Of a DNA stretch of 64,000 bases, positions 25,033 through 53,196 are shown in pieces. The notes under the pieces are model-generated. The model did not search any database. It was not told where the DNA came from and saw only the letters and a list, made by a program, of their open reading frames with translations. The stretch lies in the IMG/VR virus record IMGVR_UViG_3300025362_000006; one strand, given 5' to 3'. The position numbers and the translations under genes are program-made. How positions within the stretch are numbered: position 1 is the first letter of the stretch; the number at the start of each line of letters is the position of its first letter. Source of the DNA: an uncultured virus (IMG/VR IMGVR_UViG_3300025362_000006) (taxonomy: Duplodnaviria; Heunggongvirae; Uroviricota; Caudoviricetes).

Positions 25033-26484
25033 GTGGCTACGATGCGATCTCCAATTGATTTAAGTGGCAATGGTCCAATCATTACTGTTAATGAAGGTGA
25101 GCGAATTATTAAACCGGATAAACCCAGCATAGAATGTGGTACTGATAAGGTTTCTAGAGAAGGTAGTCGAATTGTTCGTCCAGATTGTTGTGGTGTTGAA
25201 ACTGTTGAAGATAAGTTTATTCCGGCTATTGATAGAGTTTTGACAACTGAACAGAAAGCTGTTGAGTATTTGCGATGTAAGAATAATCCATTGTATTGGA
25301 TTTATAATTATGCTTTTTTGCCTGAAACTGGAACTGGGGGTTCGTTTAAAGTTACACCAACTAATCTTCATCCTAAAATGAAGACTGTAGTTAGATCTTT
25401 ATTTCGTTATCATAAGTGTGTTCTTATGGCTAGTCGACAGCTTGGTAAAAGTTCGATTGCTGCACTAATGTTAGCATGGTGTGCGGTATTCTTTGCCGGA
25501 ATTAAGATAATTATATTGAATATGAAGAAAAATGCCGCACTGAATAACCTGGCAACAATTAAACACATTATTAAAACATTACCTCGATGGATGACAGGTG
25601 GGAACGCTTTTAAGTCTAAATCAGAGATAGTTACATATTTAACTTTGTTTAATGATTCCAGGATTGATGTTTTTTATCCGTCAACGACTCATACTGCTAG
25701 TACTTTGGCTAGATCACTAACTTCGCCTATATTGTATATTGATGAGGGAAGTTTCATTTCACATATGACCGAAATCTTTGGCAGTTCTCAGCAAACACTA
25801 TCAAGAGCCAGGGATCAAGCCATTAAAAATGGGATTCCTTATTTTATTTTTGTAACCTCTACGCCGAATGGAACGACGGGGACCGGTGCGTGGTTTTTTC
25901 AACGTTGGCAGAACTCGGTGGATTCAAAATTAATTTTTGACGATAATGCACAGTTCAAGAAAGATGTAGATATAGACATAATAGTAAAAGATCCAAGTAA
26001 AAATTCATTTATTAAAGTCAAATATGGTTGGGAGGAAGATCCTACAAAAAATCAACAATGGTATGATGAACAATGTCAAGAAATTGGAGATGCAAGAACA
26101 GTCAACCAAGAATTAGATTTAGTTTTCGTTGGTACTCAATATTGTATCTTTGATGATAAAACATTATCAAGTTTTGAAGCAGTAAAGAAACCAGATCATA
26201 TAATTATGGCTTCTGGAACTAAACTATTGACATTTCTAGATCATACTTTAAACCCCCATGACTATTATTTGATAGGTGTAGATACAGCAGAGAGTTTACA
26301 GGGTGCATATTGTGCAATTAATGTTTTTTCTTTTCATGAATTTAAACAAATTGCAGAGGTTCAACATCGATATGGTTCTTATAATTTATTTGGAGAAGAT
26401 ATCAATTATGTATTTAAATGGTTAAGACGTACTGTAGGACATGATAATATTATTCTGGCGGTTGAAAATAATACTATCGGACGT
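25033..26484 (+). CDS. terL: terminase large subunit, exon 1 (join 25033..26484,26806..27360; 668 aa)
   Basis: Walker A SRQLGKSS, YIDEG, TSTPNG, nuclease GVDTA; ends at ENNTIGR. Confidence 0.92.
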
Positions 26485-26805
26485 TATTGATTAGCGTCGT
26501 AACTTTGTGAATTGTCTGGAATACCCTTAGAGCTAATATAACAACAACGTGACTTGAAAAGGTGAGCGTGAGAACAGCACAAATGTCTGTTCGTGTTTAA
26601 AAATATATTAGATTGGGCAATCAGCAGCGAAGCTTTATTTAAAATATAAATAGAGAACGTTCAACGACTATCCCTACGGGGAGTACACTCAAGTGAGTGG
26701 AAGTACAAGGCATCGAAAGATGAAGATATAGTCTAATCTGTATAGAAATATACAGTGTATATAATAATACAAGATAGAATTAACGAATCTATCTTAATAC
26801 AAATG
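26485..26805 (+). ncRNA. group I intron (IA-like, no ORF) in terminase
   Basis: P1 GACGU/GCGUC with U.G; core AAUUGUCUGGAA, AAUCAGCAG, CAACGACUA, GAUAUAGUC; P7.1/P7.2; terminal G; removal restores frame. Confidence 0.9.
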
Positions 26806-27360
26806 GCACCAATTGAATACTTGCAACAGTTTGCGAATGCAGATAAATTAAATACAAAAGAATATATTTATTATAATGATTATCTTTATCGAGAAAAAGT
26901 TAAAGATGAAATGAAAGATAAATATGGCATACAAACCACGGGTTTGTCAAAACCATTGATGGTTGGTTGTCTCTTGCAATTTGTAAATGAAGACCCAAAA
27001 TGTATTAAGTCACAAGATTTGATTGATCAATTCTCTAGTATAGAAAAAACAAGTTCAGGGACAATTAAATCGACAGGTTATTCAGATTTATTCATGGCGG
27101 CTTGCTTCTGTGCCCTCGTAAGAAATAAAATGGCAATGGAAATTCTCCCATTAATAGAATCAAAATCATCAAAACTTCAAGGAACACAATTTGTTGATAA
27201 TTATACAAATGTCTTAGCAACGATTCATGGATCTAAATCACAAAAACAATCTGATTATTCAGATGAAGAAGTTGTATATAGCTCTTCAATTGAAGCTTTG
27301 TATGGACACGAAGATATGGAAGAATCTGAAACATCATTCATTCCATTCTTTTCAAGTTAA
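26806..27360 (+). CDS. terL: terminase large subunit, exon 2
   Basis: APIEYL...KYGIQTT...SDLFMA nuclease C-terminal motifs. Confidence 0.88.
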   Translation, partial: APIEYLQQFANADKLNTKEYIYYNDYLYREKVKDEMKDKYGIQTTGLSKPLMVGCLLQFVNEDPKCIKSQDLIDQFSSIEKTSSGTIKSTGYSDLFMAACFCALVRNKMAMEILPLIESKSSKLQGTQFVDNYTNVLATIHGSKSQKQSDYSDEEVVYSSSIEALYGHEDMEESETSFIPFFSS

Positions 27361-27523: not shown

Positions 27524-30500
27524 ATGTCAACAACAAATCAGAAAAAAAATCAATCTAATTCATACTTATTAAAAAATCAATTAGAAAAAGCAAATCTTAA
27601 TCAAAATACTCCAGAAAATCAAACAACAAACTTACAGTATTTAGAACAACGTCAACAAGAACAAGATAGAAGAAATCAAGAACAATTGCAATATGAACAG
27701 CAACAACAAAATGCACCAAATGTTCAAGATCAAGCAGATAGAATTCATTCACAATCTAAACAAGTTAAACGTGGAAAAGTTCTTAATGAATCTGATGCTA
27801 GAAAACGACAACTTAAAATGAATGAGTTATCTGCTTCTAAAGGTTACATGGCTGCGAGTATGGGTGCAAGTTATGTAAAGCAAGCAGGTAGAACAGCAGA
27901 AAACATGGGACTTGGATCTGTCGGAGGAGCATTATTAGGTTCCACTGGTGGATTTTATCAAGGTGGAATGAAGTCAATTTCAAATGCTGGTCGTGTAAAT
28001 AAACGAATGGAAATGGCAAAACATGCTAAAGAATTAGGAGCGACAGGAACAACTAAGAGAGCAACATCACTCATTAATGACACAATGCGTATGTCTTACT
28101 CTGCTAATCTTATGAAAGGACTTATGGGTGGACAGATTGCTCCTACAAGTTCTATGAAAGGTTCTATGGTTGGTGGAATTAATTCTATGTTTGGTGCTGG
28201 TGGTGGTGCCCCTGTTGCTATTGCCAGTGCTGCTGGTCCTGGAGCGGGTCAAGCTGGTATTGGTTCCGCTATTGCTGGTGCTGGAAATGCTGCTGCTACT
28301 GGTGCAGGGTCTATGATATCTCCAGGTATGGCGGCTACTGTTGGACTTGCTGCATTAAGTATGGGGAGTAGCATGGCAGCAAATAAAAAACTTCGTAAAT
28401 TAATGGTCACCAAGAAAACTCCAGGAGAGTTAGAAAGAAAATATGCAAAAGGATCTAATCTTGATAGTTTTTACAAATCACTAAGAGCACAAGAACAAAT
28501 TACTCCTCAACAACAACTTCAATATATTCTCCTCTCTTATATTGAAGGTCATACTAGTGTATTACCAGAATTACTCAGTTTAAATCAACAAACTTCAGAA
28601 GGAAAAGATAAAGCAGGAAAACAGTTAGATGGGAAATATACTAAACAAACAGGAATTTCAGACGACCCTGATGTACTAAAACATGATTCATTACTTACAA
28701 CTCTTGAAAATACACTTAATTTAATGATCACTAAGTATGATCCAATTTCACAGTTAACAAGTTTTATTTTAACTGGATCAACTCCTAAAAAGATTCTTGA
28801 AGATATTGAAAAAGGTAAAGGTTTAAGTAAGAAAGAGTTAAGTGAGAAAGATGATTCTGCACATCGACTAGGAATTTCAACAGATCAATTTAGACTACTT
28901 GGAATTAATTCAGCATCTCTTATTGCTGGTCTTCCATCATATGAAGTAAAAATGCTTGCACTTGCATCTGCATCATATGATATGAATAGATTAATTGCAC
29001 AAGAATCAGCAACTATTCGAAAACATGGTCTAGGAGTAGATCATAATTCATTCAATAGTCCAATTTCAAAAACAGGTTTGTTTGGTAAACTTGAAAATGT
29101 TGTTAATCTAATCCCAGGGTTGAGTGCTGGTTATAATGTTATTAAAGACACCTTATTACTTCCTAAAAAAGGTGCTGAATTTATGAAAGGGTTATTCAAA
29201 GGTGGAATGAACACAATCTTTGGAAAAGACTTTCTTAGACATAAAGATCAGAAAGAGTTAGATAAAGACTTGGGGTTTGATAAATCTGCTCAAGTTAAAG
29301 CTACTGAATACACTGCTGAAGGACTTCCTACTCATATGGAGAAAGTCCGAACACTTGCAGCACAGCAACTAGACATTCAATATAACATTTTTGATGTGTT
29401 GACAAAACAATATAATTTAACTCACGAACAAACGACTGGTAAAAAGTCTGAATATGGTTATACACAAAAGATGGATAACGATGTTCTTCAAGAGAGAACT
29501 TGGGATTCATTTGAACAAAAAATGCTGACTGGTGAAGGATTAGAAAAAGCTCTTGAAAAGCGCCAGGTGATGTATCAACTACAAAGAGATAAAGATTTTA
29601 AAAAATCTGGCATTAATAAACTTACTATGGCAGGGACACTAGGTTTAGCAGGTTTAGTTAATATTGATAGAAAACAAAGTCTTGTGGATAAAATAACACC
29701 AGGTTCTATTGACACAAAAAAAGAAAAAGAACAAAATATTCGTTCAACTATTAAAGATGATACTCATGTTAAAGAAGTTGATTTAGAGACTGAACGTAAA
29801 AGAGCTACTGCTGATGTTACTAAAGAAATAATGCTCCCATTAATGTCTGCAATGGGTCTCTTGACAGCAGTTGCAACAGGAGGTGTTTCAGCAATAGTTG
29901 CTGGTGGTGGAGCTACTGCTTTAGGTAGTGGTGTCGGTGGATTACTAGAAATAAATAATGAAAACCGACGAGATAAATTATTATCTGAGTTAGAAGAAAA
30001 AAATTTAGGAAGAGAAGCAATTGAAGGGAGAGGAATAACTTCAATAGATGACGAAACAAAAAAGAGAAGTAATTTAGCAAATAAAACAACGAGTGCCAGT
30101 AGTATGGGTTTAAGTAGCCCGACATTAACTTCAATAATCGACAAAGACAAAATTGTCCCAGATAAAATTCAAGTTCTTCATGAAATGATTGATGATAGAT
30201 TTGGTGAAGTTGTAGATTTATTTATTTCGCCTATTCAAGTTGAAAATTTAAGTATATTGTCGAGATTGACAGCGATAAAAGATAGACTCACATCTCCAAT
30301 TGGTGTCGATATAAAAAGTTTCACTTCTAGTCTTGTTCGACCAATTAAGAAAGGGTTTGATCGGGTCGTCTCTAAATTAAATTCTAAATTGAAAGTCGAT
30401 GTTAAATCGAATGTTTTCGGTGATTATAAATTAAAGATTCCAAAAGATTCTTCTAGTATTCTTCCAGGTTCTGGTGCTGCTGATAGTTATGCTGAAATCA

Positions 30501-33500
30501 AAGCTGCTGCAGGTGGTGGAGTGTTAGTTGGTGAAAATGGACCAGAGTACATAAAAGATAATAAATATGTTTACAATGCAGACCAAGCAAAATCTAAACT
30601 TGGATTGGATCTTCATAGTTTAGCATCTGACCCAAATGTACGTAAACTAGCTGGTGGAGGAACACTTCCATCTGCTGACGATCTAAAATCTGCCGAGGCC
30701 AAACCAGAAAATAATGTAGTAAGTATTGCCTCAAAAATGAAGGAAGATAAAGAAGAAAAGAAATACACAGAAGAACAAAAAATTCAAAATAAAATACTTT
30801 CGAATAGTGATGAAACTTATAAATTATTAACAGACATTGAAAAAAATACTAGAAAGAAAAATGAAAAGAAAAAAGATGGTATATTTTCAAAAGTACTTGC
30901 TGGATTAGCTGCATTACTTAGTGGCGGTGGTTTAGCTGCATTACTCACTGGAGGAGCGGCATTAGCAGCATTTTTTGGTACAGGGGGTAAGGTAGGAACA
31001 AAAGCAGTCGCCGGTATCGCTGGAAGGATGATGACAAAGATTCTTGCTGGTATTGGAAAAATATTTAAAAAATCAGGACCAGAATTATTAGAAACTATAT
31101 TTGAAAAGATTGGTAAAAACTTTACTAAAATGTGGCCAACCGCACTTAAAGCGTTAGGTGTAGGTAAAGGTTTCTTCACAGATTTAATCACTCACAGTTG
31201 GTCTTTTGTCAAATCAGGTATTAAAAAATTAATGCCTGATATGTTTGATAATATTGGTGCAAAATTAGCTGGTCTTGGTGGTAAAGCAGCTAAAATATTT
31301 AAAAAACTACCAGGGTCAACAGGCATCTTTAAAAAATTAGGTTCTGGATTACTAGAGAAAATAGGTCTTAAAGGTGTTGCTAAGATGGGAATGAAAGGTG
31401 CTGGAAAATTAATCAGTAAACTTATTCCAGGACTAGGGCTTCTTGTTGGTGGTTATTTTGCGGTTCAACGAGCATTAAAAGGTGAATGGCTTGAAGCAGC
31501 AGTTGAATTAGGGTCTGGTATAGCATCATTAGTTCCTGGATTCGGTACAGCACTTAGTCTTTCAGCTGATGTTTGGTTAGCTTTTCGAGATAGTAAAAAA
31601 GAAACTGTTGTTGATGGTGGTCCTGGCTCAAGGACTGGAGCAAAAAAAGAAAAAGTAGATGGACCAGGTCTGCTCAATAAAATGGGAACATTTATTACTG
31701 AAGGTTTTGCTAAAGTTGGAAACTGGATACTTGATAAAGTTTATGCCACACCATTTATTGGTGGATTTATTGAATCTTTTGTGACTGGTGTTAAGAATAC
31801 ATTCTTTGATGTTGTTGACACAGTAAAAGATGCTACGGTTGAAGATGGAAAACTTAAACCTGATTGGTTAGGTAGTCTTGCTACCACTATATGGGATGGA
31901 TTTGGAGAGTTTAAAGATAAAATATTTGAAGGAATTTATAAACTACCAATCATCGGTGGTGCAATTAAGTCTCTTATTACTGGTGTAGATAATGTAATGT
32001 TTGCAACTACTGAATTTGCTAAAGATATTGGAAAATCGGTAGACGGTGGACAGTTTAAACCTGGTTGGATGTCTCGACTGTGGACAACTGTGTCTGAAGG
32101 TTTTGGTAAAGTTAAAACTGTTATACTTGGAGAAATATATAAATTACCAGTCATCGGAGGGGTAATTAAGTCTTTAGTAACTGGTACAGAAAATGTGATG
32201 TTTGCAACTACTGAACTAGTGAAAGGTATTGGAAGTGCTGTCGATGATGGACAATTCAAACCTGGTTGGCCTGGTAGACTGTGGACAACTGTAAAAGAAG
32301 GTTTTGGTAATGTTAAAGATGCTATATTTGACGGTATATATAAACTACCGTTCATAGGTAGTTTTATAGAATCTTCTGTAACTGGTGTTAAAAATACTTT
32401 TTTTGCAACTCAAGACTTTGTTAACGAAACTAATGAAAAAATATCTAATTTTAGTATTTCGGATACTTTTCACAGCATTAAAGATTCATTAGTCACTAAA
32501 TCATCTGATTTTTTTGGTAAAATTCCTTTTATTGGGTCATATTTAAAAGATCGTATCCTTGGTAAAGAAACTAATATTCAAGAAACTCTAACAAATATTA
32601 AAACTGAAGTTAACAATAAAGCTAAAAACTTTAGTGTATCTGATACTTTTACAAATATTAAAGAAAAATATATTGAATTTGCTGCAACTATGTTTAACTC
32701 TGTCCCAATTATTGGTTCGTTCATAAAGAACTTTATTATGGGTAAAGACACAAATTTACAAGAAGAGTTAAAATTAGCTAATATTGATGCTAAAGACACA
32801 GCTAAAAGCTTTAGTATTACTAATACTTTTACAAATATTAAAGAAAAGTATATCGAGATTTATACTACATTATTTAAATCAATTCCAATTATTGGTTCAT
32901 TTATATCGAATTTTCTTATTGGAAAAGAAACTAATGTTCAAGAAGAGTTAAAATTAGCTAATATTGATGCTAAAGACACAGCTAAAAATTTTAGTATTTC
33001 GGATACTTTTCACAGCATTAAACTATTAGTAATAGAAAAAGCTGCTGGGTTTTTTGGTAAAATCCCACTTATTGGATCATGGTTAAGTAATGGTATGTTG
33101 GGTCTTGATCCTAGTTTTAAAAATGAACTCGACCAAATTAAATTAGATCAAGTAAAACAATCTCCTCAATTTAAATTAGCAGATATTTTAAATGATATGA
33201 TATCTGGTATACGAAAAGCTGCTGCTATTAAAGCTTCTTCGATTCCATTAGTTGGTGCTGTTATCGCCAACAAACTTTATCCAGAAGGTGATTTTGATGA
33301 AGATACTGAGATTGTTGATGGTAAGATAGTAAGTGAACCTAAGAGTCTTTCTAAGATTGCTCCTAAAAATATTCTTAAGAAATTAGAGAATCGAGGAGTT
33401 GTTGATATAAATAATATGATCCTAGGAGACAGATCAACAATTGCTGATAATCAATGGGATACTATTTCTGAATTATCTACACCACAACTTCAATCTGTTA

Positions 33501-36500
33501 TTGATTATGATGATTGGAGTAAAACAACTAAAGATAGATTATTAGAAATTCAAAAATCTAAAGAAACTACACGGTCTAATGTTGTGACCGCACCGAAAAC
33601 TGAAAAAGAAGTTTTACCTGTTAAGACTAAACAAATACCTGTGTCTGTTCCAAGAGGACCTGGTGCTATGTCATTACCAGAAGTTAATCACCCAGTTATT
33701 TCTAACCCAGTATCTACAAAAAAAGTTTTACAGACTAAATCAGTACCTGGACCACCGGATCGTTCGTTTGCAAGAGGTGGTATACTACCAGAGGGATTAA
33801 GTCTTATTGGTGAAGGTTCTTCTGGAAAAATAAGTGAACATGCTGAAGCAGCATTTACAGGAGTTAACCCAAGATCAGGTAAAGAAAAAACAACTATATT
33901 CCCTGCTGAATTGACAAGTAGAATGGGTATAACTAATGAAAATATGTCCAGCATTTTTGGAGATACTTCAAACATTCATGATAATTATGAATTTATTTCT
34001 GACATAGCGGAACTTGCAGGTACTGGAGTTAACTATATTGGAAAATCAAAATCAGTTGCGAAAGAGTTAAGTTCAAAAATAGTTAATATGTTTTCTAAAC
34101 GTGGTCTTAAGATGTTTGGGAAAAAAGTACCTGGTTTGGGAGCATTAATAGGTATTTATTCTGCATATGAAAAGTTTCAAGAAGGAGATAATGTTGGAGC
34201 AATGATGGAGATTGCTTCTGGATTAACTTCTTTTCTTCCAATCATTGGTACTGCGGCTGGTACCGCTATTGATATTGCTTCGATGGTAAGAGAAAGTAAA
34301 CGGGCTTCAAACGAAGCTGAAATTACTTCTGGTGGGGCTATTCCTGCATTTGAAAAAGGTGGTAAACTAAAACCTGGATTAAATATTGTTGGTGAAAAAG
34401 GTCCTGAAGCAGCATATGTAGACCCAAAGAAAAAAGATGTTCAAATTTACAATGCAGGACAAGCACAATCTAAATTTGGAATTGATGTTAATGATTCGAA
34501 TCCAAGTGTTGCTAAATTTGCTGATGGTCAAGAATCGAATAATCGACATAATAATTTATCAACTAATTTCAATTCATTATTAGATATTCGTTCAAAATTA
34601 GAACAATCAAAAACTGAATTGTCTGATATGGAAATTGAATTTCCTTCTAAACAAGTTGAACGAAGTGATGATTGGAGTCGTTGGACAGAGACAGTTTTTG
34701 ATGATCCAAAAATAGATAAACGATATGATAAACTAAGGGGTTCAATTCACGATTATAATAAAAGTTATAAAATAAAATTGAATAGATTATTTAAATTAGA
34801 TCCGAATCCTCCAAAAAGTTATAGTGAATTGTCTGGATATAGTTTATATCCAAATGAGATGAAAATATTCGATGAACAATTTGGAAAATTTGATCTATTT
34901 AATAATCAACAACAACAATGGTTCAAAACTACTTTATTTGACCTCCGTAAACAAAGGTTTTCTGAATTAGTAAAAAATGAAGAAACTCAACTTCCAACAC
35001 TAGATGAATCTGGGGTAGTTTCAGCTCCAAAAACTCAAGAAGAAGTTCAATCTGTCCCACAATCAAGGGCAGGAGCTAGAAAACGACTAATAGATAAACG
35101 AAAAGCAGCATTAATGAAATTAATGCCTAAGTCTACTCTTAAACCTGGAGAATCTGGAACAAGTTCATTTGAAGGCACTGTTTATAAACAACCTGGTCAG
35201 ACTGATTTTGATATGACAAAGGTTCAACCAGATACTACTATTTCTTCTAAACCAACTTGGACTTCTTCTAGAGGTATACCTGATCTTTCCTTTCTCCATG
35301 ATGAAAGTTCAACTAATTATGACTCTTCTGTTATTGGAAATTCTATGCATCCTACTCAACCTAATGCTCCTGGAGCATATGACACAGTAAAAGATGTAGC
35401 AGGTAAAGGATTTGATACTGCTAAGATACTTGGTACATCAGCTTATGATAAAGCAAAAGATTTAGGAAGTAAGGCAAAAGATTCTATCGTTGCTAATGCT
35501 CCTGGAGCATATGACACAGTAAAAGATGTAGCAGGTAAAGGATTTGATACTGCTAAGATACTTGGTACATCAGCTTATGATAAAGCAAAAGATTTAGGAA
35601 GTAAGGCAAAAGATTCTATCGTTGCTAATGCTCCTGGAGCATATGACACAGTAAAAGATGTAGCAGGTAAAGGATTTGATACTGCTAAGATACTTGGTAC
35701 ATCAGCTTATGATAAAGCAAAAGGACTAATTTCTGGAGACGATTCTACTTCATCTGAAATTCCTGTCATTGGAAACGCTATGCATCCTACTCAACCTAAT
35801 GCTGTCGGTCATGCAATGCATCCTACTCAACCTAAGAAATTTAAAGGTAAATTTGATGCAATGTCATTTGCTGGATCGTTTGCTTCTCAACTTACTGGAT
35901 TACTTGGTAGAGCAGGTAAAATGGCAGCTAAATTTGCTATTGGTGGTGTGCTTGGTGAAGACACATATGATAAAGTTGCTTCTGTGCTTTCTGGAGACGA
36001 TAAGAAACCAATTAAACCAGATACTGATAATTTAGATAGCCCTATTTGGGATGTAGTAAAGAATCATACTATGGCAAGTGAAGGAATTGTTCTTCATAAA
36101 TATAAAGATCATTTAGGTTATGACACTATTGGTGTTGGGCATTTAATTAAGAAAGGTGAACGATTTCCAGATAAGATTAGTTCAGGTGAAGCAAGAACAA
36201 TATTCAATAAGGACTTTAGAGAGCATAAAATGATGACTTCTCGAATGCCTGGATTTGATAAATTAGATGATGTACATCAAGGTGCAATAGTTGATATGGG
36301 ATTTAATTTAGGATTTGGTTCTGAAGCGAAAGGAACTGGTCTTATGGGATTTAAAAATACTCGTAAAAAACTAGTGTCTGGTGATTTTGCTGGAGCTGCT
36401 GGAGGTATACGTGATAGTAAATATCATAAACAAGTCCCAAATAGAGCTGAACGTATTGCTAAAGTTGTTGAAACTAGTGATCCAAGCTATTTCAATTCAG

Positions 36501-37114
36501 ACAAACCTCAAATCATTGCAAGACATGGGGCATTTACTGGCAAAGGTATTTCTGAGATGCTCAGTTCAAAGAAAACTATGCTTGCTGACAAAGCTAATCA
36601 AATGTTCAGTAATGTGTCCTCTAAAATAGAGGATGGGGCAAGAGGATTAGGTTTCACAGGTAAAGGTACTGCACCTATTTCTGCAACACTTCATCCAAAT
36701 GAATTTGTGTTTGGTAAAGGACAATTTGAAGGTTTGATGAGTAAGATTGTTGATGATACTAATGCTCAAATAGGTAAAAATCTTGATTTAAAACGAATGG
36801 ATATCTCAAATATTTTATCCAAAGCTAAAGAATTTGAGAAAGTTCAAAATGAAAATATTAAAGAGACTGCAAAGAAAGAAACTGATATACAAACTAAAGC
36901 AGCTAATCCTGCTCCACCAGTTATTGTAAATAATAACAACAATACCCAGGCAGCTCCACCACAGAATAATAGACAAGAAGCAGAAGGACAGTTTACAGAA
37001 ATTGATAATTCATTAGATAAAATGGTTTATAATTTATTTAATGCTTCTACAAACTCATTAATAACATTTATTAATGATTCTGTTTTTTCAAATAATGCTT
37101 CATTTGATTTTTAA
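27524..37114 (+). CDS. tape measure-like protein with C-terminal T4-type lysozyme (GH24) domain
   Basis: 3196 aa; Gly/Ala-rich hydrophobic and periodic helical repeats; EGIVLHKYKDHLGYDTIGVGHLI and SKYHKQVPNRA lysozyme motifs. Confidence 0.85.
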   Translation: MSTTNQKKNQSNSYLLKNQLEKANLNQNTPENQTTNLQYLEQRQQEQDRRNQEQLQYEQQQQNAPNVQDQADRIHSQSKQVKRGKVLNESDARKRQLKMNELSASKGYMAASMGASYVKQAGRTAENMGLGSVGGALLGSTGGFYQGGMKSISNAGRVNKRMEMAKHAKELGATGTTKRATSLINDTMRMSYSANLMKGLMGGQIAPTSSMKGSMVGGINSMFGAGGGAPVAIASAAGPGAGQAGIGSAIAGAGNAAATGAGSMISPGMAATVGLAALSMGSSMAANKKLRKLMVTKKTPGELERKYAKGSNLDSFYKSLRAQEQITPQQQLQYILLSYIEGHTSVLPELLSLNQQTSEGKDKAGKQLDGKYTKQTGISDDPDVLKHDSLLTTLENTLNLMITKYDPISQLTSFILTGSTPKKILEDIEKGKGLSKKELSEKDDSAHRLGISTDQFRLLGINSASLIAGLPSYEVKMLALASASYDMNRLIAQESATIRKHGLGVDHNSFNSPISKTGLFGKLENVVNLIPGLSAGYNVIKDTLLLPKKGAEFMKGLFKGGMNTIFGKDFLRHKDQKELDKDLGFDKSAQVKATEYTAEGLPTHMEKVRTLAAQQLDIQYNIFDVLTKQYNLTHEQTTGKKSEYGYTQKMDNDVLQERTWDSFEQKMLTGEGLEKALEKRQVMYQLQRDKDFKKSGINKLTMAGTLGLAGLVNIDRKQSLVDKITPGSIDTKKEKEQNIRSTIKDDTHVKEVDLETERKRATADVTKEIMLPLMSAMGLLTAVATGGVSAIVAGGGATALGSGVGGLLEINNENRRDKLLSELEEKNLGREAIEGRGITSIDDETKKRSNLANKTTSASSMGLSSPTLTSIIDKDKIVPDKIQVLHEMIDDRFGEVVDLFISPIQVENLSILSRLTAIKDRLTSPIGVDIKSFTSSLVRPIKKGFDRVVSKLNSKLKVDVKSNVFGDYKLKIPKDSSSILPGSGAADSYAEIKAAAGGGVLVGENGPEYIKDNKYVYNADQAKSKLGLDLHSLASDPNVRKLAGGGTLPSADDLKSAEAKPENNVVSIASKMKEDKEEKKYTEEQKIQNKILSNSDETYKLLTDIEKNTRKKNEKKKDGIFSKVLAGLAALLSGGGLAALLTGGAALAAFFGTGGKVGTKAVAGIAGRMMTKILAGIGKIFKKSGPELLETIFEKIGKNFTKMWPTALKALGVGKGFFTDLITHSWSFVKSGIKKLMPDMFDNIGAKLAGLGGKAAKIFKKLPGSTGIFKKLGSGLLEKIGLKGVAKMGMKGAGKLISKLIPGLGLLVGGYFAVQRALKGEWLEAAVELGSGIASLVPGFGTALSLSADVWLAFRDSKKETVVDGGPGSRTGAKKEKVDGPGLLNKMGTFITEGFAKVGNWILDKVYATPFIGGFIESFVTGVKNTFFDVVDTVKDATVEDGKLKPDWLGSLATTIWDGFGEFKDKIFEGIYKLPIIGGAIKSLITGVDNVMFATTEFAKDIGKSVDGGQFKPGWMSRLWTTVSEGFGKVKTVILGEIYKLPVIGGVIKSLVTGTENVMFATTELVKGIGSAVDDGQFKPGWPGRLWTTVKEGFGNVKDAIFDGIYKLPFIGSFIESSVTGVKNTFFATQDFVNETNEKISNFSISDTFHSIKDSLVTKSSDFFGKIPFIGSYLKDRILGKETNIQETLTNIKTEVNNKAKNFSVSDTFTNIKEKYIEFAATMFNSVPIIGSFIKNFIMGKDTNLQEELKLANIDAKDTAKSFSITNTFTNIKEKYIEIYTTLFKSIPIIGSFISNFLIGKETNVQEELKLANIDAKDTAKNFSISDTFHSIKLLVIEKAAGFFGKIPLIGSWLSNGMLGLDPSFKNELDQIKLDQVKQSPQFKLADILNDMISGIRKAAAIKASSIPLVGAVIANKLYPEGDFDEDTEIVDGKIVSEPKSLSKIAPKNILKKLENRGVVDINNMILGDRSTIADNQWDTISELSTPQLQSVIDYDDWSKTTKDRLLEIQKSKETTRSNVVTAPKTEKEVLPVKTKQIPVSVPRGPGAMSLPEVNHPVISNPVSTKKVLQTKSVPGPPDRSFARGGILPEGLSLIGEGSSGKISEHAEAAFTGVNPRSGKEKTTIFPAELTSRMGITNENMSSIFGDTSNIHDNYEFISDIAELAGTGVNYIGKSKSVAKELSSKIVNMFSKRGLKMFGKKVPGLGALIGIYSAYEKFQEGDNVGAMMEIASGLTSFLPIIGTAAGTAIDIASMVRESKRASNEAEITSGGAIPAFEKGGKLKPGLNIVGEKGPEAAYVDPKKKDVQIYNAGQAQSKFGIDVNDSNPSVAKFADGQESNNRHNNLSTNFNSLLDIRSKLEQSKTELSDMEIEFPSKQVERSDDWSRWTETVFDDPKIDKRYDKLRGSIHDYNKSYKIKLNRLFKLDPNPPKSYSELSGYSLYPNEMKIFDEQFGKFDLFNNQQQQWFKTTLFDLRKQRFSELVKNEETQLPTLDESGVVSAPKTQEEVQSVPQSRAGARKRLIDKRKAALMKLMPKSTLKPGESGTSSFEGTVYKQPGQTDFDMTKVQPDTTISSKPTWTSSRGIPDLSFLHDESSTNYDSSVIGNSMHPTQPNAPGAYDTVKDVAGKGFDTAKILGTSAYDKAKDLGSKAKDSIVANAPGAYDTVKDVAGKGFDTAKILGTSAYDKAKDLGSKAKDSIVANAPGAYDTVKDVAGKGFDTAKILGTSAYDKAKGLISGDDSTSSEIPVIGNAMHPTQPNAVGHAMHPTQPKKFKGKFDAMSFAGSFASQLTGLLGRAGKMAAKFAIGGVLGEDTYDKVASVLSGDDKKPIKPDTDNLDSPIWDVVKNHTMASEGIVLHKYKDHLGYDTIGVGHLIKKGERFPDKISSGEARTIFNKDFREHKMMTSRMPGFDKLDDVHQGAIVDMGFNLGFGSEAKGTGLMGFKNTRKKLVSGDFAGAAGGIRDSKYHKQVPNRAERIAKVVETSDPSYFNSDKPQIIARHGAFTGKGISEMLSSKKTMLADKANQMFSNVSSKIEDGARGLGFTGKGTAPISATLHPNEFVFGKGQFEGLMSKIVDDTNAQIGKNLDLKRMDISNILSKAKEFEKVQNENIKETAKKETDIQTKAANPAPPVIVNNNNNTQAAPPQNNRQEAEGQFTEIDNSLDKMVYNLFNASTNSLITFINDSVFSNNASFDF
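35363..35723 (+). repeat. 132-bp coding tandem repeat x~2.7 (44 aa, 11-residue periodicity)
   Basis: Identical units at 35363, 35495, 35627. Confidence 0.92.
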
Positions 37115-45889: not shown

Positions 45890-47075
45890 ATGACCGATTT
45901 TGATTGTGTTGATATTATTAATGTTCCAACAACTAAATCTTGTTCTTGTATTGATTGTGTACAAATTAATCCACAACAATTATGTAATTTCACTAAAAAC
46001 CCAAATAGCAAAGATGGTAAAGAATCTTTTTGTAAATTTTGTATAAGTCGAAGACGTACAGAAAAAAGGGTCCTTCAAAAATTTTTTGCTATAATGAAAA
46101 CTACGCATATAGATCAATTTAAAACAACAGTAGCTTGTGTTTATATTTCACAAACTCACACATGTAATTTGAAAAGTAAACGATTGTTGAATAATTTTAA
46201 ATTGACAGAACAAGAATTAATTGAAATATTAAAAGATGAACAGGTATTTCAATATAAAATATGTATAAGTTGTCAACAACTAAAACCTTTTGACGAATAT
46301 TATAAAATGAGTAAAAACTCTCTACAATCAATTTGTATTCTATGTCAACAAGATTTATATAAAAAATAGTGAAAGCATTAAAACTAATTCTAAGGTATAT
46401 AGAAATGGCCCAGGTAAATATGATACGTATGCTAAACAATTGTTTGCAGACGATTGTAGACGATCGAAACATGATCCATCAGTTTTAGAATTAAAATGCA
46501 CATATTGTGGTCGTTATTATTCGCCATCCATTAATCAAATTTCGAATAGAATACGATCGACTGCTGATAATGCTAAATATGTAGACATTAGATTATATTG
46601 TTCAACTAATTGTAAACAATCGTGTCCAATGTTTAGTAGAACAGTAGACCAACTAATAAATGTAGATGCAAAAATAAATTCTGAAACCAGTATTCCATTG
46701 AATCGAGAGATTCAAGCTCAGTTACGTCAAATGGTTCTTGCTCGGGATAACTACACTTGTCAAAAGTGTGGTAAACATCAGGATAACTTAGATGTGGGGC
46801 TTCATGCACATCGTATCGAAGGTATTCGTCATAACCCCATCGAATCTGCAGATATTGATATGGTTATCACAGTCTGTGTTAATTGTCATAAAGAGATCCA
46901 CAGACAACCTGGGTGTACTAGACAAGATATGATGTGTAATTTAGAAGATTATGATGAAGATACAATGAACAAAATCAAAAAAAATAAAGAAATCAAAAAA
47001 CAAGATATTGATAAAGTTGAAGATATTGAAATAAATATATCTAATGAAATGTTAGAAGATATTTTATTTTATTAG
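45890..47075 (+). pseudogene. free-standing HNH homing endonuclease, frameshifted (ORFs 45890..46369 and 46440..47075)
   Basis: CxxC zinc modules, RDNYTCQKCG...CVNCHKEIH; frames join at A6 run 46361-46366; HHI motif reads HRI. Confidence 0.8.
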
Positions 47076-47094: not shown

Positions 47095-47339
47095 ATGGCT
47101 AGTAAAGCGAAAAAGTTTGGCTTTATATTTGAGCAAACGGTGGTCGTCCCGAATAGTAAGCTTGAGATTCTTGAAGAATCTTTGACTGACGATAAGCGAC
47201 CAAGGGTACATTTCAGATCTCTTTTACAAGAATCTGGAGTAAAGAATCAAAATAATAGAATTTATGGTCAGCCGGTTTGTGAAAGTATAGTTGCACAACT
47301 TGCTCCTAAAGCAAAAGCAAGAAATTTGTTAATGGAAGT
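47095..47339 (+). CDS. prohead protease (T4 gp21-like), exon 1 (join 47095..47339,47701..48232; 258 aa)
   Basis: LQESGVKNQNNRIY motif; splicing restores MEV|DHP catalytic His motif. Confidence 0.9.
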
Positions 47340-47700
47340 AAAATGATCTGCTTCCCATATTCAGTGATGAGTATGAAAAAAATCTCGTGAACTGTCTGGG
47401 ATATCCTTAGAGCTAATATAACTACAACGTGACTTGAAAAGGTGAGCGTGAGAACAAATATTTGTTCGTGTTTGAAAATATATTAGATTGGACAATCAGC
47501 AGCGAAGCTCCTGTAAAATGGAGAACGTTCAACGACTATCCCGAAAGGGAGTACACTTCAAGTGAAGTGGAAGTGCGAGACAACTTATTTTTTTATTTTC
47601 AGTAAGTTGAAGATATAGTCTAATCTTATAAGAAATTATGAGCAAGAAGAATTTAACTTCTTCTTAGATAGAATTAACGATTCTGTCTGAATGGATGATG
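47340..47700 (+). ncRNA. group I intron (IA-like, no ORF) in prohead protease
   Basis: P1 GGAAGU/GCUUCC, 7-bp P10 AUGAUCU/AGAUCAU, P/Q/R/S core, terminal G 47700. Confidence 0.93.
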
Positions 47701-48232
47701 AGATCATCCTCTATTTGGAATCAGTGATCCAAATCAATTAAAACGTCGAGCAGGAATCGTAGAGATTCGCAATTGTGGGGCGTACATCAAGGACATCTCC
47801 TATAAAGGTAATCAAGTGATTGGAGAAATTCAAACTCTGTCTGGTTTTCAAGGACCTAGTTTAGCTAACCTTATTCTCCGAGACAAAGTCAATATAGGTT
47901 TTTCATTACGAGCTTTAGGATCTGTTGAACCACTCACTGATGGGACATTAGATGTCAAGATGCCACTTCGTGCGATTACATATGATATCGTGAGTTCGCC
48001 GTCGCATGATAATGCTCGCATCACGGAGTTCCTACCAGAGTCATTCATATGTGAATCCGCAGATGAATCTGGAATTTTAGCAGAAGCAGCAGATTTATCA
48101 TTACTTGAGCAGCAAGATAATATTGTTATTGATAATGTAAATGGAAATCATTATATTCAGGCTTTTACAGATGATTTGATTCATGAGACTTTCTTAAATA
48201 TTATTAATAAAGGTCTACGATTTAAACTTTAA
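47701..48232 (+). CDS. prohead protease, exon 2
   Basis: DHP...IGFSLRALGS...TYDIVSSPSH motifs of S77/gp21-type proteases. Confidence 0.9.
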
Positions 48233-48298
48233 TTAATACTCCTCTAAGTCTAACACTTAGAGATTCAATATAACTATTTCTAGAGGAAGAGGTTTACA

Positions 48299-49171
48299 AT
48301 GGAATTAATATTTGAAAATTACGAAAACTTCATTACGGAAAATAAAGACGAGCTCAATTCTCCAAGAGATGCATATCGGCTTTTGCACGATGATGCGATG
48401 TTCAGGAGCTATAAAGACAGTTTGCTCGAAGGTATTGATGAAGCTGTGCGTCCGAGTATTATGGGTGTTTTGGATCGCCAAAGAGAAATGCTGCTTTCTG
48501 AGGCAGCGAACGTGGGGAGTAGCTCATTCGCAGCTGGGTGGACTGTGATGTCGTTTCCGATTTTGGTCGACATATATGCAGAGCCATTAATATCAGAAAT
48601 TTGTACTTCCTACCCAATTTCTAAGTCAGTAATCTCCATCCCCCGTATGAGGGTAAAAGCCACAACTACGTCTTATGATGGGACTACAGAAACATCACGT
48701 TACATTCCTACTGCAACTGAACTCGTCAGAGCAAATGAAGAAGTAGTAACAGTAACTCCTGGAACAAATTATAACATCTATACTGGATTGGGTTTCACTA
48801 TTGCAACTCATAAAATGAATAGACGTTATAATATTATGTATTCTACTGCTATCACTGAGACTAAAACTGGTGGTGGTACTGAAGATCATACTGTTGTTCT
48901 TAATTATCGTCCTGATAACCGTAATCAGATTGCCCAGACCTTTACATTCACTAGTTCTGATAGTGAGACTGTCACTGGTAATGTAATGGCTCATGTAAAT
49001 AATGATGCTGGTACAGTATCTGTTCAAATTACATTTGATATTGGTGATTCTACTTCTACTTTTGAAGCAGATACAGCTACATTTAAACTGCGTTTTCGTC
49101 CTGTTGGATCTAATCACGGACGAACTAAAGTTAGTGTGACTACTGAAATGATAGATTGTACCGTGGACCCT
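48299..49171 (+). CDS. major capsid protein, exon 1 (join 48299..49171,49571..49615,49996..50052,51353..51813,53018..53147; 521 aa)
   Basis: Follows protease; acidic prodomain ending LLSE|AAN; spliced product has a gp23-like EDIQDFNSIFKIDV...QIALNKD helix. Confidence 0.88.
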
Positions 49172-49570
49172 AAGACTTGTTGGGGCTTATGTTAGTAATG
49201 ACATTCGAAGAACTTCTTTAACTGTCTGGAAACTCCTTAGAGCCAAATAACTACAACGTAACTTGAAAAGGTAAGCGTGAGTCACTTTTGTGTGACGGAT
49301 TGTATAGTTAAAAAATATTTGGATTGGACAATCAGCAGCGAAGTCTCTAATTAAAAATTCGCAATTTTTATATGAGAAACGTCCAACGACCATCCCGCGA
49401 GGGAGTACACTTCAAGTGAAGTGGAAATAGGAAGGTTCCTATATTTTCAATGTTACACATAGGAACGTGATATGGTCTGTTCTTCATAGAGATATGGAGC
49501 AAAAATATTTTTATTTATTCAACTAAAATTATTTTTGTTTATGATTTAACGCATCGTAAATAATATCAAG
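49172..49570 (+). ncRNA. group I intron 1 of MCP (no ORF)
   Basis: P1 CCCU/GGGG, core AACUGUCUGGAA, AAUCAGCAG, CAACGACCA / GAUAUGGUC (covarying P7), terminal G. Confidence 0.9.
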
Positions 49571-49615
49571 AACGAAGATTTCCTTCTCGAGCTAGAGACT
49601 GAAGATATTCAGGAT
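49571..49615 (+). CDS. MCP exon 2 (45 nt, NEDFLLELETEDIQD)
   Basis: Between terminal G of intron 1 and P1 (GGAU/GUCC) of intron 2; in frame. Confidence 0.82.
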
Positions 49616-49995
49616 ACCCAGTTGGTTCTCTATTAAAAATCAACTAAGTCCCTTGTATCAGTAATGATATTCGAAAAACTCTCTTAATTGCTGGAACGTC
49701 CTTAGAGCTAATATAACTACAACGTAACTTGAAAAGGTAAGCGTAAAGTTCATTTATGAACTATGTTTGAAAATATATTAGATTGGAAAATCAGCAGCGA
49801 AGCTCCTGTAAAATGGAGAACGTTCAACGACTATCCAGGAATGGAGTAGGATTCAAGCGAATCCGAAATAGAAAGTACCCAATTATCATCTATTGGGTAA
49901 TGATATAGTCTAGACTATATAGAAATATATAGTAGTTTATATGACGATTTTACATATAAACAGGAATAGGTTCGCGACTTATTTCGAATATTTCG
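49616..49995 (+). ncRNA. group I intron 2 of MCP (no ORF)
   Basis: Extended P1, AAUUGCUGGAA, AAUCAGCAG, CAACGACUA, GAUAUAGUC, P9 with GAAA loop. Confidence 0.9.
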
Positions 49996-50052
49996 TTCAA
50001 CAGCATTTTTAAAATCGACGTACTAAGAACGATTACAGAAGCAATTAAGCGT
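49996..50052 (+). CDS. MCP exon 3 (57 nt, FNSIFKIDVLRTITEAIKR)
   Basis: In frame between introns 2 and 3. Confidence 0.82.
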
Positions 50053-50310
50053 TAACCTTAGCGCCGTATGGCAGTAATGTCATATGAAAATTTCGTGAAT
50101 TGTCTGGGATACCCTTAGAGCTAATATAACTACAACGTGACTTGAAAAGGTGAGCGTGAATGTTTGAAAATATATTAGATTGGGCAATCAGCAGCGAAGT
50201 CTCTAAGTAAAATTTGTTATTTTATATGAGGAACGTTCAACGACTATCCCGCAAGGGAGTAGAATTCAAGTGAATTCGAAGTACGAAACAACCCATTGTA
50301 GTGATTACTT

Positions 50311-50410
50311 ATATGGGGAAACAGATTGGGATTTATGTACTCTAATTAAGTACCCCAATTGACTTAGGTGCCGATACACTTGAGTCTCCCCGCCCATATC
50401 TTATCGGAGG
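50311..50410 (+). promoter_or_regulatory. structured leader with RBS-pairing pseudoknot (copy 2)
   Basis: Stem ATATGGG/CCCATAT; hairpin loop CCGATA complementary to TATCGG 50402-50407 overlapping SD GGAGG. Confidence 0.72.
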
Positions 50411-50417
50411 TCAACTA

Positions 50418-51215
50418 ATGAAAGTATGAACATGTGCAGGATGTAAGAAAAGCGAACCTGAAGTAGAATTTTATGCAGCGGGAAGACATTGTAAAAAATG
50501 CAGGTCTGTTAATAATGTGAGAAAATATTACACCGAACAGATTGGTCAATTTGAATTAATTGGTATTCAAGAATTACACAAATTTCAACGATCTTTTTTG
50601 TATAATTCTATCCACAAAAGAAAACGGTCTTTAGAATTCTGTTCCCAAGTAATGGGATATCCAATTGACAAATTAGAATCTGCATTAAATTCAATTGGGT
50701 ATTATGAGGATAATCATGGTTGGTGTTCCAAGTGTGCTATACTAAAACCGTTAAGTGAATTTAGTATATCTACTACTCTAAAGTGTGGACATCACTATTG
50801 GTGTAAAGAATGTGATAACGCCGGTACAAAACAATATAAATTAGATAACCATGAAAAACATCTGGAATATTGCAAAACTCATTATCATAAAAACAAAGAA
50901 CAATGTGCAGCATATGGTAAACAATATAGAAAAGATAACCCCGACAAAATAGCACAATACGGTTTAAAACAACGCACTAATTATAAACAAGCAACGGCTT
51001 GTTGGGCAGATTTGGATAAACTCAAACAAATTTATTTGGAACGGGACAGATTAACTGAAGAAACGGGCATACGACACAATGTTGATCACGTAATTCCCTT
51101 AAATGGGAAGAATGTGTGTGGTCTACACGTAGAGACCAATCTCCAAATCTTAACTGAAACAGAAAACAAATCAAAAAGTAACAAATTTGAACCAATTATC
51201 GAATCGTTCAAATAG
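50418..51215 (+). pseudogene. intron-encoded HNH endonuclease with TGA at codon 4 (open part 50517..51215)
   Basis: SD GGAGG + ATG 50418 in frame; CxxC modules; HNVDHVIPL...GLHVETNLQIL...N HNH motif. Confidence 0.8.
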
Positions 51216-51352
51216 TCAAAACAAAAAATCATATCATATATTATCATGGGTTGATAATATAGTCTGGTCTGTGTAGAAATATACAGCCGTTGTTCAAGTC
51301 CAATCTTTACTTGAACACGGAATAAGAGTAACGATCTTATTTGAACATAACG

Positions 51353-51813
51353 CAAATCGCCTTGAATAAAGATTACGATTTGGTATATTTTTTAGCGGCG
51401 AGCGAGACCTCCATGGCAGATTATGGAGCCCGTTTCACGGTTGATCTTGACAACTTCAAGGGGGATAGTAATTATAAGCCGTCTACCCCGATCGATGTAT
51501 TCAAGGCAATTATTCCTCACATCTCCACATTAATGGGAGTGATCCGCAAAAATTATCAAATGTATCCGTCATACCTAGTCGCTGGGATTAAAACCGCATC
51601 TATGCTTCGATCACTCCAGGAAATGATGGTTAGTCTTCCTGGTGATCGTGGTGGAATGGGTTTCGGTGGAACAACTGCTCAGTTCTTGAAATTGAAAATT
51701 CTTGAATCTGTATCAGCTGACGAAAATAAGATTTATCTTACAACGAAAGCTCCTGCAAATGCTCTTGAGAAAGCGTCAATCATTGATCTCATCTATCAAC
51801 CTCTCTACATCGT
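51353..51813 (+). CDS. MCP exon 4
   Basis: QIALNKDYDL...LIYQPLYIV; YQPLY resembles the gp23 YxPY motif. Confidence 0.88.
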
Positions 51814-52061
51814 TAACTAATAGCGACCTTATGCAGTAATGTATATTGAATAACCTTGTGAATTCATGGGAAGCCTAACTCTGAAAAGATATGGTAATCA
51901 TGAGCCAAGCTTTAATGAGACCACTAATTTCATTATTGAAGGTGCAACGACTATCGAAACCACATCTAGTAAATTAGATGGAAGGGAGTAGAGTACACAA
52001 CGAGTGTTGTGGAAGCGCAAGGTATCCGAAAAGAAAAAACCAGAAACAATTTTTTAAAAGT

Positions 52062-52142
52062 TTCTGGGGGGACAACGGTTGATCGCCGGATAATTACCTA
52101 TTTAATTATCTTACCCTCAGAATCTATCATATCTAATAGGAG
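52062..52142 (+). promoter_or_regulatory. structured leader with RBS-pairing pseudoknot (copy 3)
   Basis: Stem TTCTGGGGG/CCCTCAGAA; hairpin loop CCTATT complementary to AATAGG 52135-52140 overlapping SD AGGAG. Confidence 0.72.
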
Positions 52143-52150
52143 AAAATATA

Positions 52151-52901
52151 ATGTTAAACAAAAAACCAGTAAAAACAACAAAAATCTGTTCGCGAAAAAC
52201 ATGTAGATGCCCATATAAAGGTATGCCCCAGCCAATTGAAAACTTCACCAAACAATCATCATCAAAAGATGGTTATTATCCAGCTTGTAAAGCTTGCGTT
52301 GCAGCATACGAAGAATCAAAAGGAATACATAAATACCGTAAAGATTTCACAAAAAAATGGAAACAAGAATTAGCTAAATTCGATATCTCTGCAGACAATA
52401 TTTCTTATTGTGAACAAGTAAGAAGAGATCCTGACAATTCTGAATTACTTCAAGTGCAATGTTCATTGTGTAAAAATTGGATGAATCCAAAAAATGGTCA
52501 AGTCCATAATCGAACAAGTGCATTAGATGGTAAAAAAGCTGGAGAATCAAAGTTCTATTGTAGTGAAGAATGTAAAAAACAGTGTCAGACTTATCGAAGA
52601 CAAACACATCGTAAATCTGAAGCTAAAAATTATAGTCCTATGAATAGAGATGCTACGGTTCAATATCTATCATCTGCGTAATATGGCATTAGAAAGAGAT
52701 AATTATACTTGTCAAAAATGTGGGTCAACAGAAAATTTGATCTGTCATCATATCGAGTCAATAAATGAAAATCCAATAGAAAGTGCAGATCTTGATAATG
52801 TTGTAATGTTATGTACAATATGTCATGAAGAAATTCATTCACGTGTCGGTTGTCGTCGACAAGATTTGACATGCGAAAATATAAAAATTAACATAGGTTA
52901 G
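52151..52901 (+). pseudogene. intron-encoded HNH endonuclease, frameshifted by TATC duplication
   Basis: ORFs 52151..52681 and 52650..52901; removing one TATC (52664-52671) gives VQYHLRNMALERDNYTCQKCG...CHHIE...CTICHEEIH. Confidence 0.85.
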
Positions 52902-53017
52902 TGGCCTAGTACCAACTTCGGATAATGATATAGTCTTGTCTGTATAGAAATATGCAGCAGTAGTGTATAATCAATTACCCTACGAATAGAGTCTAACGAA
53001 TTCTATTGAAAATTACG

Positions 53018-53147
53018 TAAGGAAATCACTGACGGAGCAACCAGAAACTACGTCCGATCAAGAACAATGATCGAAATCGCTCGTACCGATGGAATGGGTT
53101 GCATCGAAGTACTTAATATTGACAATTATCTGGCGAATACTGCCTAA
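53018..53147 (+). CDS. MCP exon 5 (C-terminus)
   Basis: V|KEITDGATRNYVRSRTMIEIARTDGMGCIEVLNIDNYLANTA*; not in ORF track. Confidence 0.85.
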
Positions 53148-53153
53148 ACAAAT

Positions 53154-53196
53154 GTTTTATATAGTAGCTAGGCGATAGCTAGCTACTATATAAAAC
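53154..53196 (+). terminator. perfect 18-bp inverted repeat after MCP
   Basis: GTTTTATATAGTAGCTAG-GCGATAG-CTAGCTACTATATAAAAC. Confidence 0.65.

Follow-up and report, generated by a model that had tools for sequence, protein, structure and literature searches.

The group I introns in the td, nrdB and nrdD (sunY) genes of bacteriophage T4 belong to subgroup IA2 and occur one per gene, in genes of nucleotide metabolism. The Staphylococcus phage Twort reportedly carries three introns in a single gene, orf142 (Landthaler and Shub 1999, PNAS 96:7005). More than half of the viral group I introns belong to IA2 (PMC11835236). Passages of the report on mycobacteriophage LittleE describe one probable group I intron in the major capsid gene, which was verified by reverse transcription-polymerase chain reaction (RT-PCR) and N-terminal protein sequencing, and cite a further capsid intron in lactococcal phage Tuc2009 (PMC3706429). 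In the passages on the capsid gene of Faustovirus E12, 13 exons of 13-527 bp are separated by 12 introns, of which five are group I, and two carry homing endonuclease open reading frames (ORFs) (PMC6247863). For larger phages, the main-text passages on the Jug jumbo gut phages give an average of 18.5 group I introns per genome and a terL gene in two to three fragments, with metatranscriptome support (PMC12880540), and those on the Bastillevirinae give up to three introns in the DNA polymerase gene or terL (PMC11878797). The gene described here belongs to an uncultured virus (IMG/VR IMGVR_UViG_3300025362_000006) and is located at 48299-53147 on the + strand of a 64,000-nt stretch of DNA, hereafter the window, which is the visible 64 kb of a probably much larger genome. 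With a probability of about 0.93, it is a major capsid gene (HK97-fold, T4 gp23-like), the only one in the window, that is interrupted by four mobile group I introns.

All features of the locus lie on the + strand. A Shine-Dalgarno-like sequence, GAGGAAGAGG (48283-48292, read from the sequence), is located 6 nt before the ATG at 48299, and a terminator-like hairpin of 18 bp with a T-rich tail (53154-53196) follows 7 nt past the stop codon. Exon 1 (48299-49171, 873 nt) encodes residues 1-291 and is followed by two micro-exons, exon 2 of 45 nt (49571-49615, residues 292-306, NEDFLLELETEDIQD) and exon 3 of 57 nt (49996-50052, residues 307-325, FNSIFKIDVLRTITEAIKR). Exon 4 (51353-51813, 461 nt) covers residues 326-478 and two bases of codon 479, and exon 5 (53018-53147, 130 nt) supplies the last base of this codon and ends with the TAA stop. 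Exons 1, 4 and 5 are supported by alignment with homologs and the micro-exons by alignment free of gaps; exon 3 is in addition contained in a contig from another sequencing run (X11, covering 49807-50087) with no differences. When joined, the exons (873 + 45 + 57 + 461 + 130) give 1566 nt which encode 521 amino acids and a terminal stop without any internal stop, and the introns (399 + 380 + 1300 + 1204) take up 3283 of the 4849 nt. Every coordinate and count of this arrangement had been put forward in a preliminary description made from the sequence alone, and all of them hold, as does its remark that exons 2, 3 and 5 are invisible to ORF callers, since these exons lie in no + strand ORF of at least 30 amino acids. 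The two visible ORFs of the gene on the + strand are those at 48299-49195 (298 amino acids) and 51341-51820 (159 amino acids), and between and after them lie either no long ORFs or endonuclease-like ones.

The exon model was compared with uninterrupted proteins by searching exon 4 alone against longer proteins, which gave 27 homologs, mostly of 510-523 amino acids, and the spliced product aligns with all 27. Contiguous alignment with capsid homologs had been named in the preliminary description as the test of the model, and it is found in all 20 full-length homologs (510-535 amino acids), which align end to end, from residue 1-4 to residue 510-519, with 50-57% identity and 1-17 gaps. A multiple alignment was made of 18 of the 27 homologs (17 full-length proteins and P0001; three near-duplicates and six truncated ORFs were omitted), and in none of its 18 rows is there a gap within residues 265-350 or 450-518, so that the junctions are free of gaps, and family-invariant residues are retained at every junction. 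Mean identity to these 18 homologs is 69% for exon 2, 64% for exon 3, 59% for exon 4, 56% for exon 5 and 47% for exon 1, and the micro-exons are therefore the best-conserved parts of the protein. Because the homologs align to the spliced protein, a chance match of the predicted spliced frame is excluded.

The product is a major capsid protein of the HK97 fold that resembles T4 gp23 and has its relatives among the jumbo phages; the preliminary description had already called this the major capsid gene. Exon 1 has 109 representative homologs with expect values (E) of up to 0.001 and matches PHROG 20655 (phrog_20655), 'major head protein', with an E of 1.7e-9. In tblastn searches of a phage collection, exon 1 matches only ten Staphylococcus jumbo phages, where the product is annotated as 'precursor of major head subunit' (25-35% identity), and exon 4 has no matches. 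Pfam returns no matches on the exon pieces, and its Gp23 family matches only one of 21 family members (E 0.0075). A profile of 21 homologs matches chain A of PDB entry 7x30 with an E of 4.9e-18; this closest solved relative is named by Foldseek as the capsid of Staphylococcus jumbo phage S6. The AlphaFold (AF2) model of homolog P0003, which has a mean predicted local distance difference test score (pLDDT) of 75.7, finds its best Foldseek matches in the capsid proteins of S6, PhiKZ, phi-kp24, P1 and T4 (gp23) with E of 1e-13 to 1.5e-3 and low template modelling (TM) scores of 0.2-0.3. The capsid protein of Faustovirus has a double jelly-roll fold, unlike the capsid fold seen here. The gene is located directly 3' of the prohead protease gene, an order that is the same in its relatives. 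The phage itself, known from salt-lake and marine metagenomes, is an uncultured jumbo myophage with AT-rich DNA. It is recognised as a large myophage because genes for a UvsX-like recombinase, a DnaB-like helicase, a tail protein of 3196 amino acids and a tail sheath are present in the window, and because the contigs of its relatives reach 315 kb.

All four gaps between the exons give a covariance-model match at or above the 50-bit threshold of RF00028, the Rfam model of group I introns. Introns 1 and 2 are ORF-less; intron 1 (49172-49570, 399 nt) scores 60.2 bits at 49162-49499 and has the P1 pairing CCCUAA/UUGGGG, and intron 2 (49616-49995, 380 nt) scores 69.9 bits at 49636-49932 and has the P1 pairing GGAU/GUCC. 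In introns 3 and 4 the P8 loop contains an ORF, and the match to the model falls into two parts. Intron 3 (50053-51352, 1300 nt) scores 53.6 bits for its 5' part (50043-50337) and 23.2 bits for its 3' part (51185-51286), with the P1 pairing GCGUUA/UAGCGC, and intron 4 (51814-53017, 1204 nt) scores 52.0 bits for its 5' part (51804-52089) and 31.2 bits for its 3' part (52787-52957), with the P1 pairing UCGUUA/UAGCGA. Each of the two ORFs is enclosed by a perfect P8 stem of 7 bp, whose strands start at 50290 and 51246 in intron 3 and at 52024 and 52917 in intron 4. Each of the four introns contains one CAACGAC motif (P7) and one (G/A)ATAT(A/G)GTC motif (J8/7-P7') in the correct order, and two short hairpins, seen by eye, follow CAACGACUA between P7 and P3' in introns 1-3.

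The splice sites had originally been placed by U.G pairs at the 5' sites and terminal Gs, and the letters at all junctions agree: T is the last exon base at 49171, 49615, 50052 and 51813, and G is the last intron base at 49570, 49995, 51352 and 53017. When the four 5' junction regions are folded by minimum energy, every one of them forms a P1 hairpin in which the exon-terminal U is paired with a G, followed by a P2 hairpin with a GUAA loop; such folds show that the pairing is possible and speak of compatibility, not of significance. In-frame stops occur 7, 6, 0 and 2 codons past the 5' splice sites of introns 1-4, respectively, the first codon of intron 3 being TAA. Like the introns of T4, those described here have ORFs that are looped out of the core and stops early in the intron, and by eye they also seem to have extra hairpins between P7 and P3'. 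Early in-frame stops are described as a feature of many group I introns in protein genes in the passages of PMC3984707 that deal with them. Inteins were considered and rejected, the inserts containing stops and ribozyme cores, and so were group II introns, for which there are no Rfam matches. Judged by these features, the four introns are of the group I type, for which self-splicing is predicted.

The ORF of intron 3 (50517-51215) encodes 232 amino acids from a GTG start and is a candidate endonuclease VII-like HNH homing endonuclease gene, with a match to phrog_1035 'endonuclease VII' (E 7.7e-22). It belongs to no Pfam family, a sequence search of the PDB gives no meaningful match, and its C-terminus matches a 302-amino-acid ORF in the intron of a related locus (L006). 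Its frame is open from 50430 and encodes a zinc-finger-like CxxC...CxxC arrangement, but the first start codon in it is the GTG at 50517. One base out of this frame, at 50426, there is an ATG preceded by GGAGG. All this suggests that the gene is a second slightly damaged one, or that it uses an unusual start. The HNH endonuclease gene of intron 4 (52151-52901) is broken into two ORFs, 52151-52681 and 52650-52901, of which the second matches Pfam HNH with an E of 1.5e-7. The break is attributed to a frameshift by the 4-nt tandem repeat TATC TATC at 52664-52667, because an X11 contig does not have these 4 nt at 52664, because without them the frame is continuous over 248 codons, and because four relatives (L018, L025, L033 and L034) have intact colinear ORFs of 237-278 amino acids which match both pieces. 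Intact and broken alleles of the intron-4 endonuclease thus seem to coexist in nature. In four metagenomes the contig depth is many times higher over the HNH motif (52673-52834) and over the conserved P4-P6 region of intron 3 (50081-50242), which points to many related endonuclease genes and introns in these communities.

Related loci show how this arrangement varies within the family. P0003 as a single-protein query found no related loci in viral contigs, and a query in the form of an alignment led to 34 related loci, 19 of which have an uninterrupted and colinear capsid gene (two pairs among them being the same contig twice) and eight an interrupted one. The intron at site 4, which is inserted after the GT of codon 479 and has the same P1, recurs in L025, L031, L032 and L033, both with and without an HNH ORF; in L032 it is a 294-nt ORF-less form, and L018 ends at this very point with an HNH ORF downstream. 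In L032, moreover, the 3' part of a group I core is immediately followed by the capsid gene, which begins there with residue 307. In L006 a 1318-nt insert with a U.G-type P1 and an intron-3-like endonuclease ORF is located at residue 310/311, and in L004 an exon of ~52 nt is flanked by two introns, one at residues 84/85 and the other near residue 101. The most heavily interrupted gene is that of L031, a 6.5-kb contig with at least five introns, the fifth of which runs off the contig, and exons of 241, 32, 648, 16 and 514 nt. Its boundaries are all of the T/G type, and its product of 483 amino acids has no stops and is 75% identical to P0026. Upstream of its contiguous protease gene, over ~1 kb (505-1530), L031 has four more group I core matches of 36-73 bits, and a second gene in that stretch probably has an intron load comparable to that of the capsid gene. 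Some truncated 'proteins' from relatives in public collections have their ends precisely at site 1 (P0029, P0037, P0065 and P0069), site 2 (P0030) and site 4 (P0022-24). Altogether there are ~12 distinct insertion sites across the capsid gene family, and the 20-amino-acid windows around the four sites described here are more conserved than 76-97% of the gene, a location in conserved stretches that fits the endonuclease-driven targeting of conserved sequence.

Two other late genes of the window are split in the same manner. The prohead protease gene contains a 406-nt intron (47340-47745; RF00028 match of 82.4 bits at 47330-47642) between exons at 47095-47339 and 47746-48232, and its spliced product of 243 amino acids can be aligned without interruption, from query residue 1-7 to query residue 229-243, to the gene preceding the capsid gene at 18 of the 34 loci; five more have partial matches. 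A group I intron of 110 bits is also found in the protease gene of L025 (271-527), at about residue 170 as opposed to residue 82 in the window. The gene of the terminase large subunit (25033-27360) has a match of 85 bits at 26475-26755, these coordinates being those of the Rfam match, and the flanking ORFs match terminase PHROGs. Among the 5' cores of introns 1-3 and of the introns in the protease and terminase genes, identity is 69-82%, but between any of these and the core of intron 4 it is no more than 43-45%. This indicates that one family has multiplied, to reach five or more sites distributed over three late genes, and that intron 4 comes from a second lineage.

Two further regions of the window may be mentioned. 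At 45890-47075, between a 168-amino-acid ORF and the protease gene, two adjacent ORFs of 159 and 211 amino acids are together similar to the intron-4 endonuclease in its zinc-finger and HNH parts; with no ribozyme core around this region, it looks like a free-standing homing endonuclease gene in two pieces. The 3196-amino-acid product is encoded by a single ORF (27524-37114) with peptidase/lysozyme-like, tape-measure-like and baseplate-hub-like PHROG matches, and is predicted to be a very large tail or injection protein.

It is proposed that the locus is transcribed as one late pre-mRNA, from 48299-53147 and ending at the hairpin at 53154-53196, in which each intron would fold into a ribozyme whose internal guide pairs with the end of the upstream exon, with U.G at the point to be cut. 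The first attack, at the 5' site, would come from free guanosine, and the freed exon would then attack after the terminal G, so that four independent pairs of transesterifications would join the five exons into the 1566-nt frame of the 521-amino-acid capsid protein. On unspliced RNA, the stops located 0-7 codons into the introns would keep ribosomes off the ribozymes. The introns may be regarded as selfish elements that reside in the most conserved stretches of an essential gene, where introns 1-3, together with those of the protease and terminase genes, would represent one family multiplied within the genome, and intron 4 a separate lineage whose site is occupied in many relatives. The HNH-type endonucleases in the P8 loops of introns 3 and 4 would drive the spread into intron-less alleles during co-infection, and the nearby ORF-less introns would probably be carried along by co-conversion. 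We infer splicing and its order, homing and co-conversion from these features of the DNA.

Several observations weigh against this account of the locus. The match of intron 4 was missed by a scan of the whole window in gathering mode and was recovered with laxer filters only, and the cores of introns 3 and 4 are barely above the Rfam threshold, which is explained by the ORFs that split them. In comparison with shuffled sequence the junction folds have z values of -0.5 to -3.4, and only one of the four is clearly better. The P1 of intron 2 has only 4 bp with the exon, with an 8-bp hairpin extension, and P10, when paired by hand, amounts to 5 bp in intron 1 and to only 2 bp in introns 2, 3 and 4. 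The stretch is contained in runs from 24 studies of salt-lake and marine metagenomes dated 2017-2019, five of which may be its source and none of which is on record as RNA, and splicing, its order and its efficiency are thus inferred.

The short P1 of intron 2, the weak P10 pairings and the near-threshold scores of introns 3 and 4 would also fit a reading in which the introns are real and at least one of them, the weakest being 2, 3 and 4, no longer self-splices, in which case the capsid would depend on a protein helper or would be made inefficiently alongside exon-skipped products. The lengths of exons 2 and 3, both multiples of 3 nt, would allow either to be skipped with the frame maintained. 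Such a loss is nevertheless unlikely, as the phage cannot do without its capsid protein and requires much of it, runs from all 24 studies of 2017-2019 share the four-intron arrangement, and the core motifs are intact in all four introns. Products of exon skipping probably would not assemble, because the micro-exons encode the best-conserved residues.

It is far less probable that the gene is a decaying pseudogene of a defective or dying lineage in which another, intact capsid gene does the work. With only 64 kb visible, an intron-less second capsid gene could be located elsewhere in the genome, which counts against the four-intron gene as the source of the capsid, and the frameshift in the intron-4 endonuclease shows that there is some local decay. 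The five exons, however, maintain one stop-free frame over 1566 nt and retain the family-invariant residues at their junctions. The gene has no paralog within the 64-kb window, occupies the conserved position next to the protease gene and possesses its own ribosome-binding site and terminator.

The assembly of the locus is backed by contigs from four further runs (X8-X11), which span exon-intron boundaries without differences at 48592-49278, 49385-49605, 49807-50087, 51091-51947 and 52718-53147, and the junction of exon 2 and intron 2 is spanned by an X11 contig with variants of its own at 49594, 49597 and 49625. Among the contigs of these four runs, each of which covers the stretch in part, there is none that precisely skips an intron. 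The joints that do appear have short sides of 21-37 nt or foreign letters in between, and look like cross-matches between paralogous intron cores elsewhere in the metagenomes. That an assembler misled by repeated ribozyme cores stitched in extra copies of an intron, as the 69-82% identity of five introns and the many chimeric-looking joints could suggest, has next to no probability given these contigs, and a faulty assembly would not produce micro-exons in exact agreement with the protein family. Self-splicing of four mobile introns from the single capsid gene of the window remains the favoured reading.

Like orf142 of Twort, the capsid gene is one phage gene with several closely spaced group I introns, which include one family multiplied in the genome, and in which exon skipping is possible; orf142 has three introns, whereas here there are four, located in the major capsid gene, with at least five in relatives. 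As far as the passages on LittleE go, the resemblance extends to a group I intron in the capsid gene, a U at the end of exon 1, a G at the end of the intron and a homing endonuclease gene, but LittleE is a temperate siphovirus with one intron and a LAGLIDADG-like ORF on the opposite strand, whereas the present gene has micro-exons and four introns, and its HNH ORFs run in the same direction as the gene (PMC3706429). The RT-PCR and N-terminal sequencing described there show that an intron-bearing gene is able to supply the capsid (PMC3706429). Faustovirus E12, in the passages describing its capsid gene, shares the intron-riddled gene, the tiny exons and an exon structure that was recovered using the known protein; it differs in being a eukaryotic giant virus with mixed intron types, GIY-YIG instead of HNH ORFs and transcriptome support, whereas splicing here is predicted from DNA (PMC6247863). 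The Jug phages and Bastillevirinae are likewise large phages in which group I introns and HNH genes break up essential genes time and again, but their main-text passages contain neither introns in capsid genes nor more than three introns per gene (PMC12880540, PMC11878797).

A search of largely open-access literature, in its main texts, returned no phage capsid gene with at least four group I introns. The four introns exceed the three per phage gene found in the published literature, and otherwise represent a known kind of element and an established principle, not a new mechanism. The preliminary description had called the gene structure unusually eukaryote-like, which is overstated, as these are ordinary mobile group I introns of the phage type, and both multi-intron phage genes and intron-riddled capsid genes have been published (in the passages of PMC11878797, PMC3706429 and PMC6247863). 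Its further suggestion that the introns provide a control point for late expression is speculation.

Since gene callers detect only two of the five exons, the key marker gene of this phage is annotated as fragments of 298 and 159 amino acids, and phage classification and abundance estimates that are based on capsid genes will miss or mis-size such genes. A tentative and rather doubtful extension of the four-intron reading is that the capsid gene in this salt-lake and marine jumbo clade is a battleground of endonuclease-driven competition among co-infecting relatives. Introns would accumulate as an occupied site is immune to the matching endonuclease, and introns 1 and 2, located 45 and 57 nt from their neighbours, would spread as a cassette that is co-converted with intron 3 when its enzyme cuts an intron-less allele. 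If this were true, the 16-nt exon of L031 would have to serve both as the P10 partner of one ribozyme and as the P1 partner of the next, and splicing would then have to follow a set order. Taken with its relatives, the window belongs to a natural series: the introns of one essential gene number anywhere between none and at least five, ~12 sites are in use, and the same intron occurs with an endonuclease gene as well as without. This series is usable for studying how introns colonise new sites, how far an exon is able to shrink (here to 16 nt) before neighbouring ribozymes interfere with each other, and whether an intron load in its most heavily expressed gene costs a phage anything.

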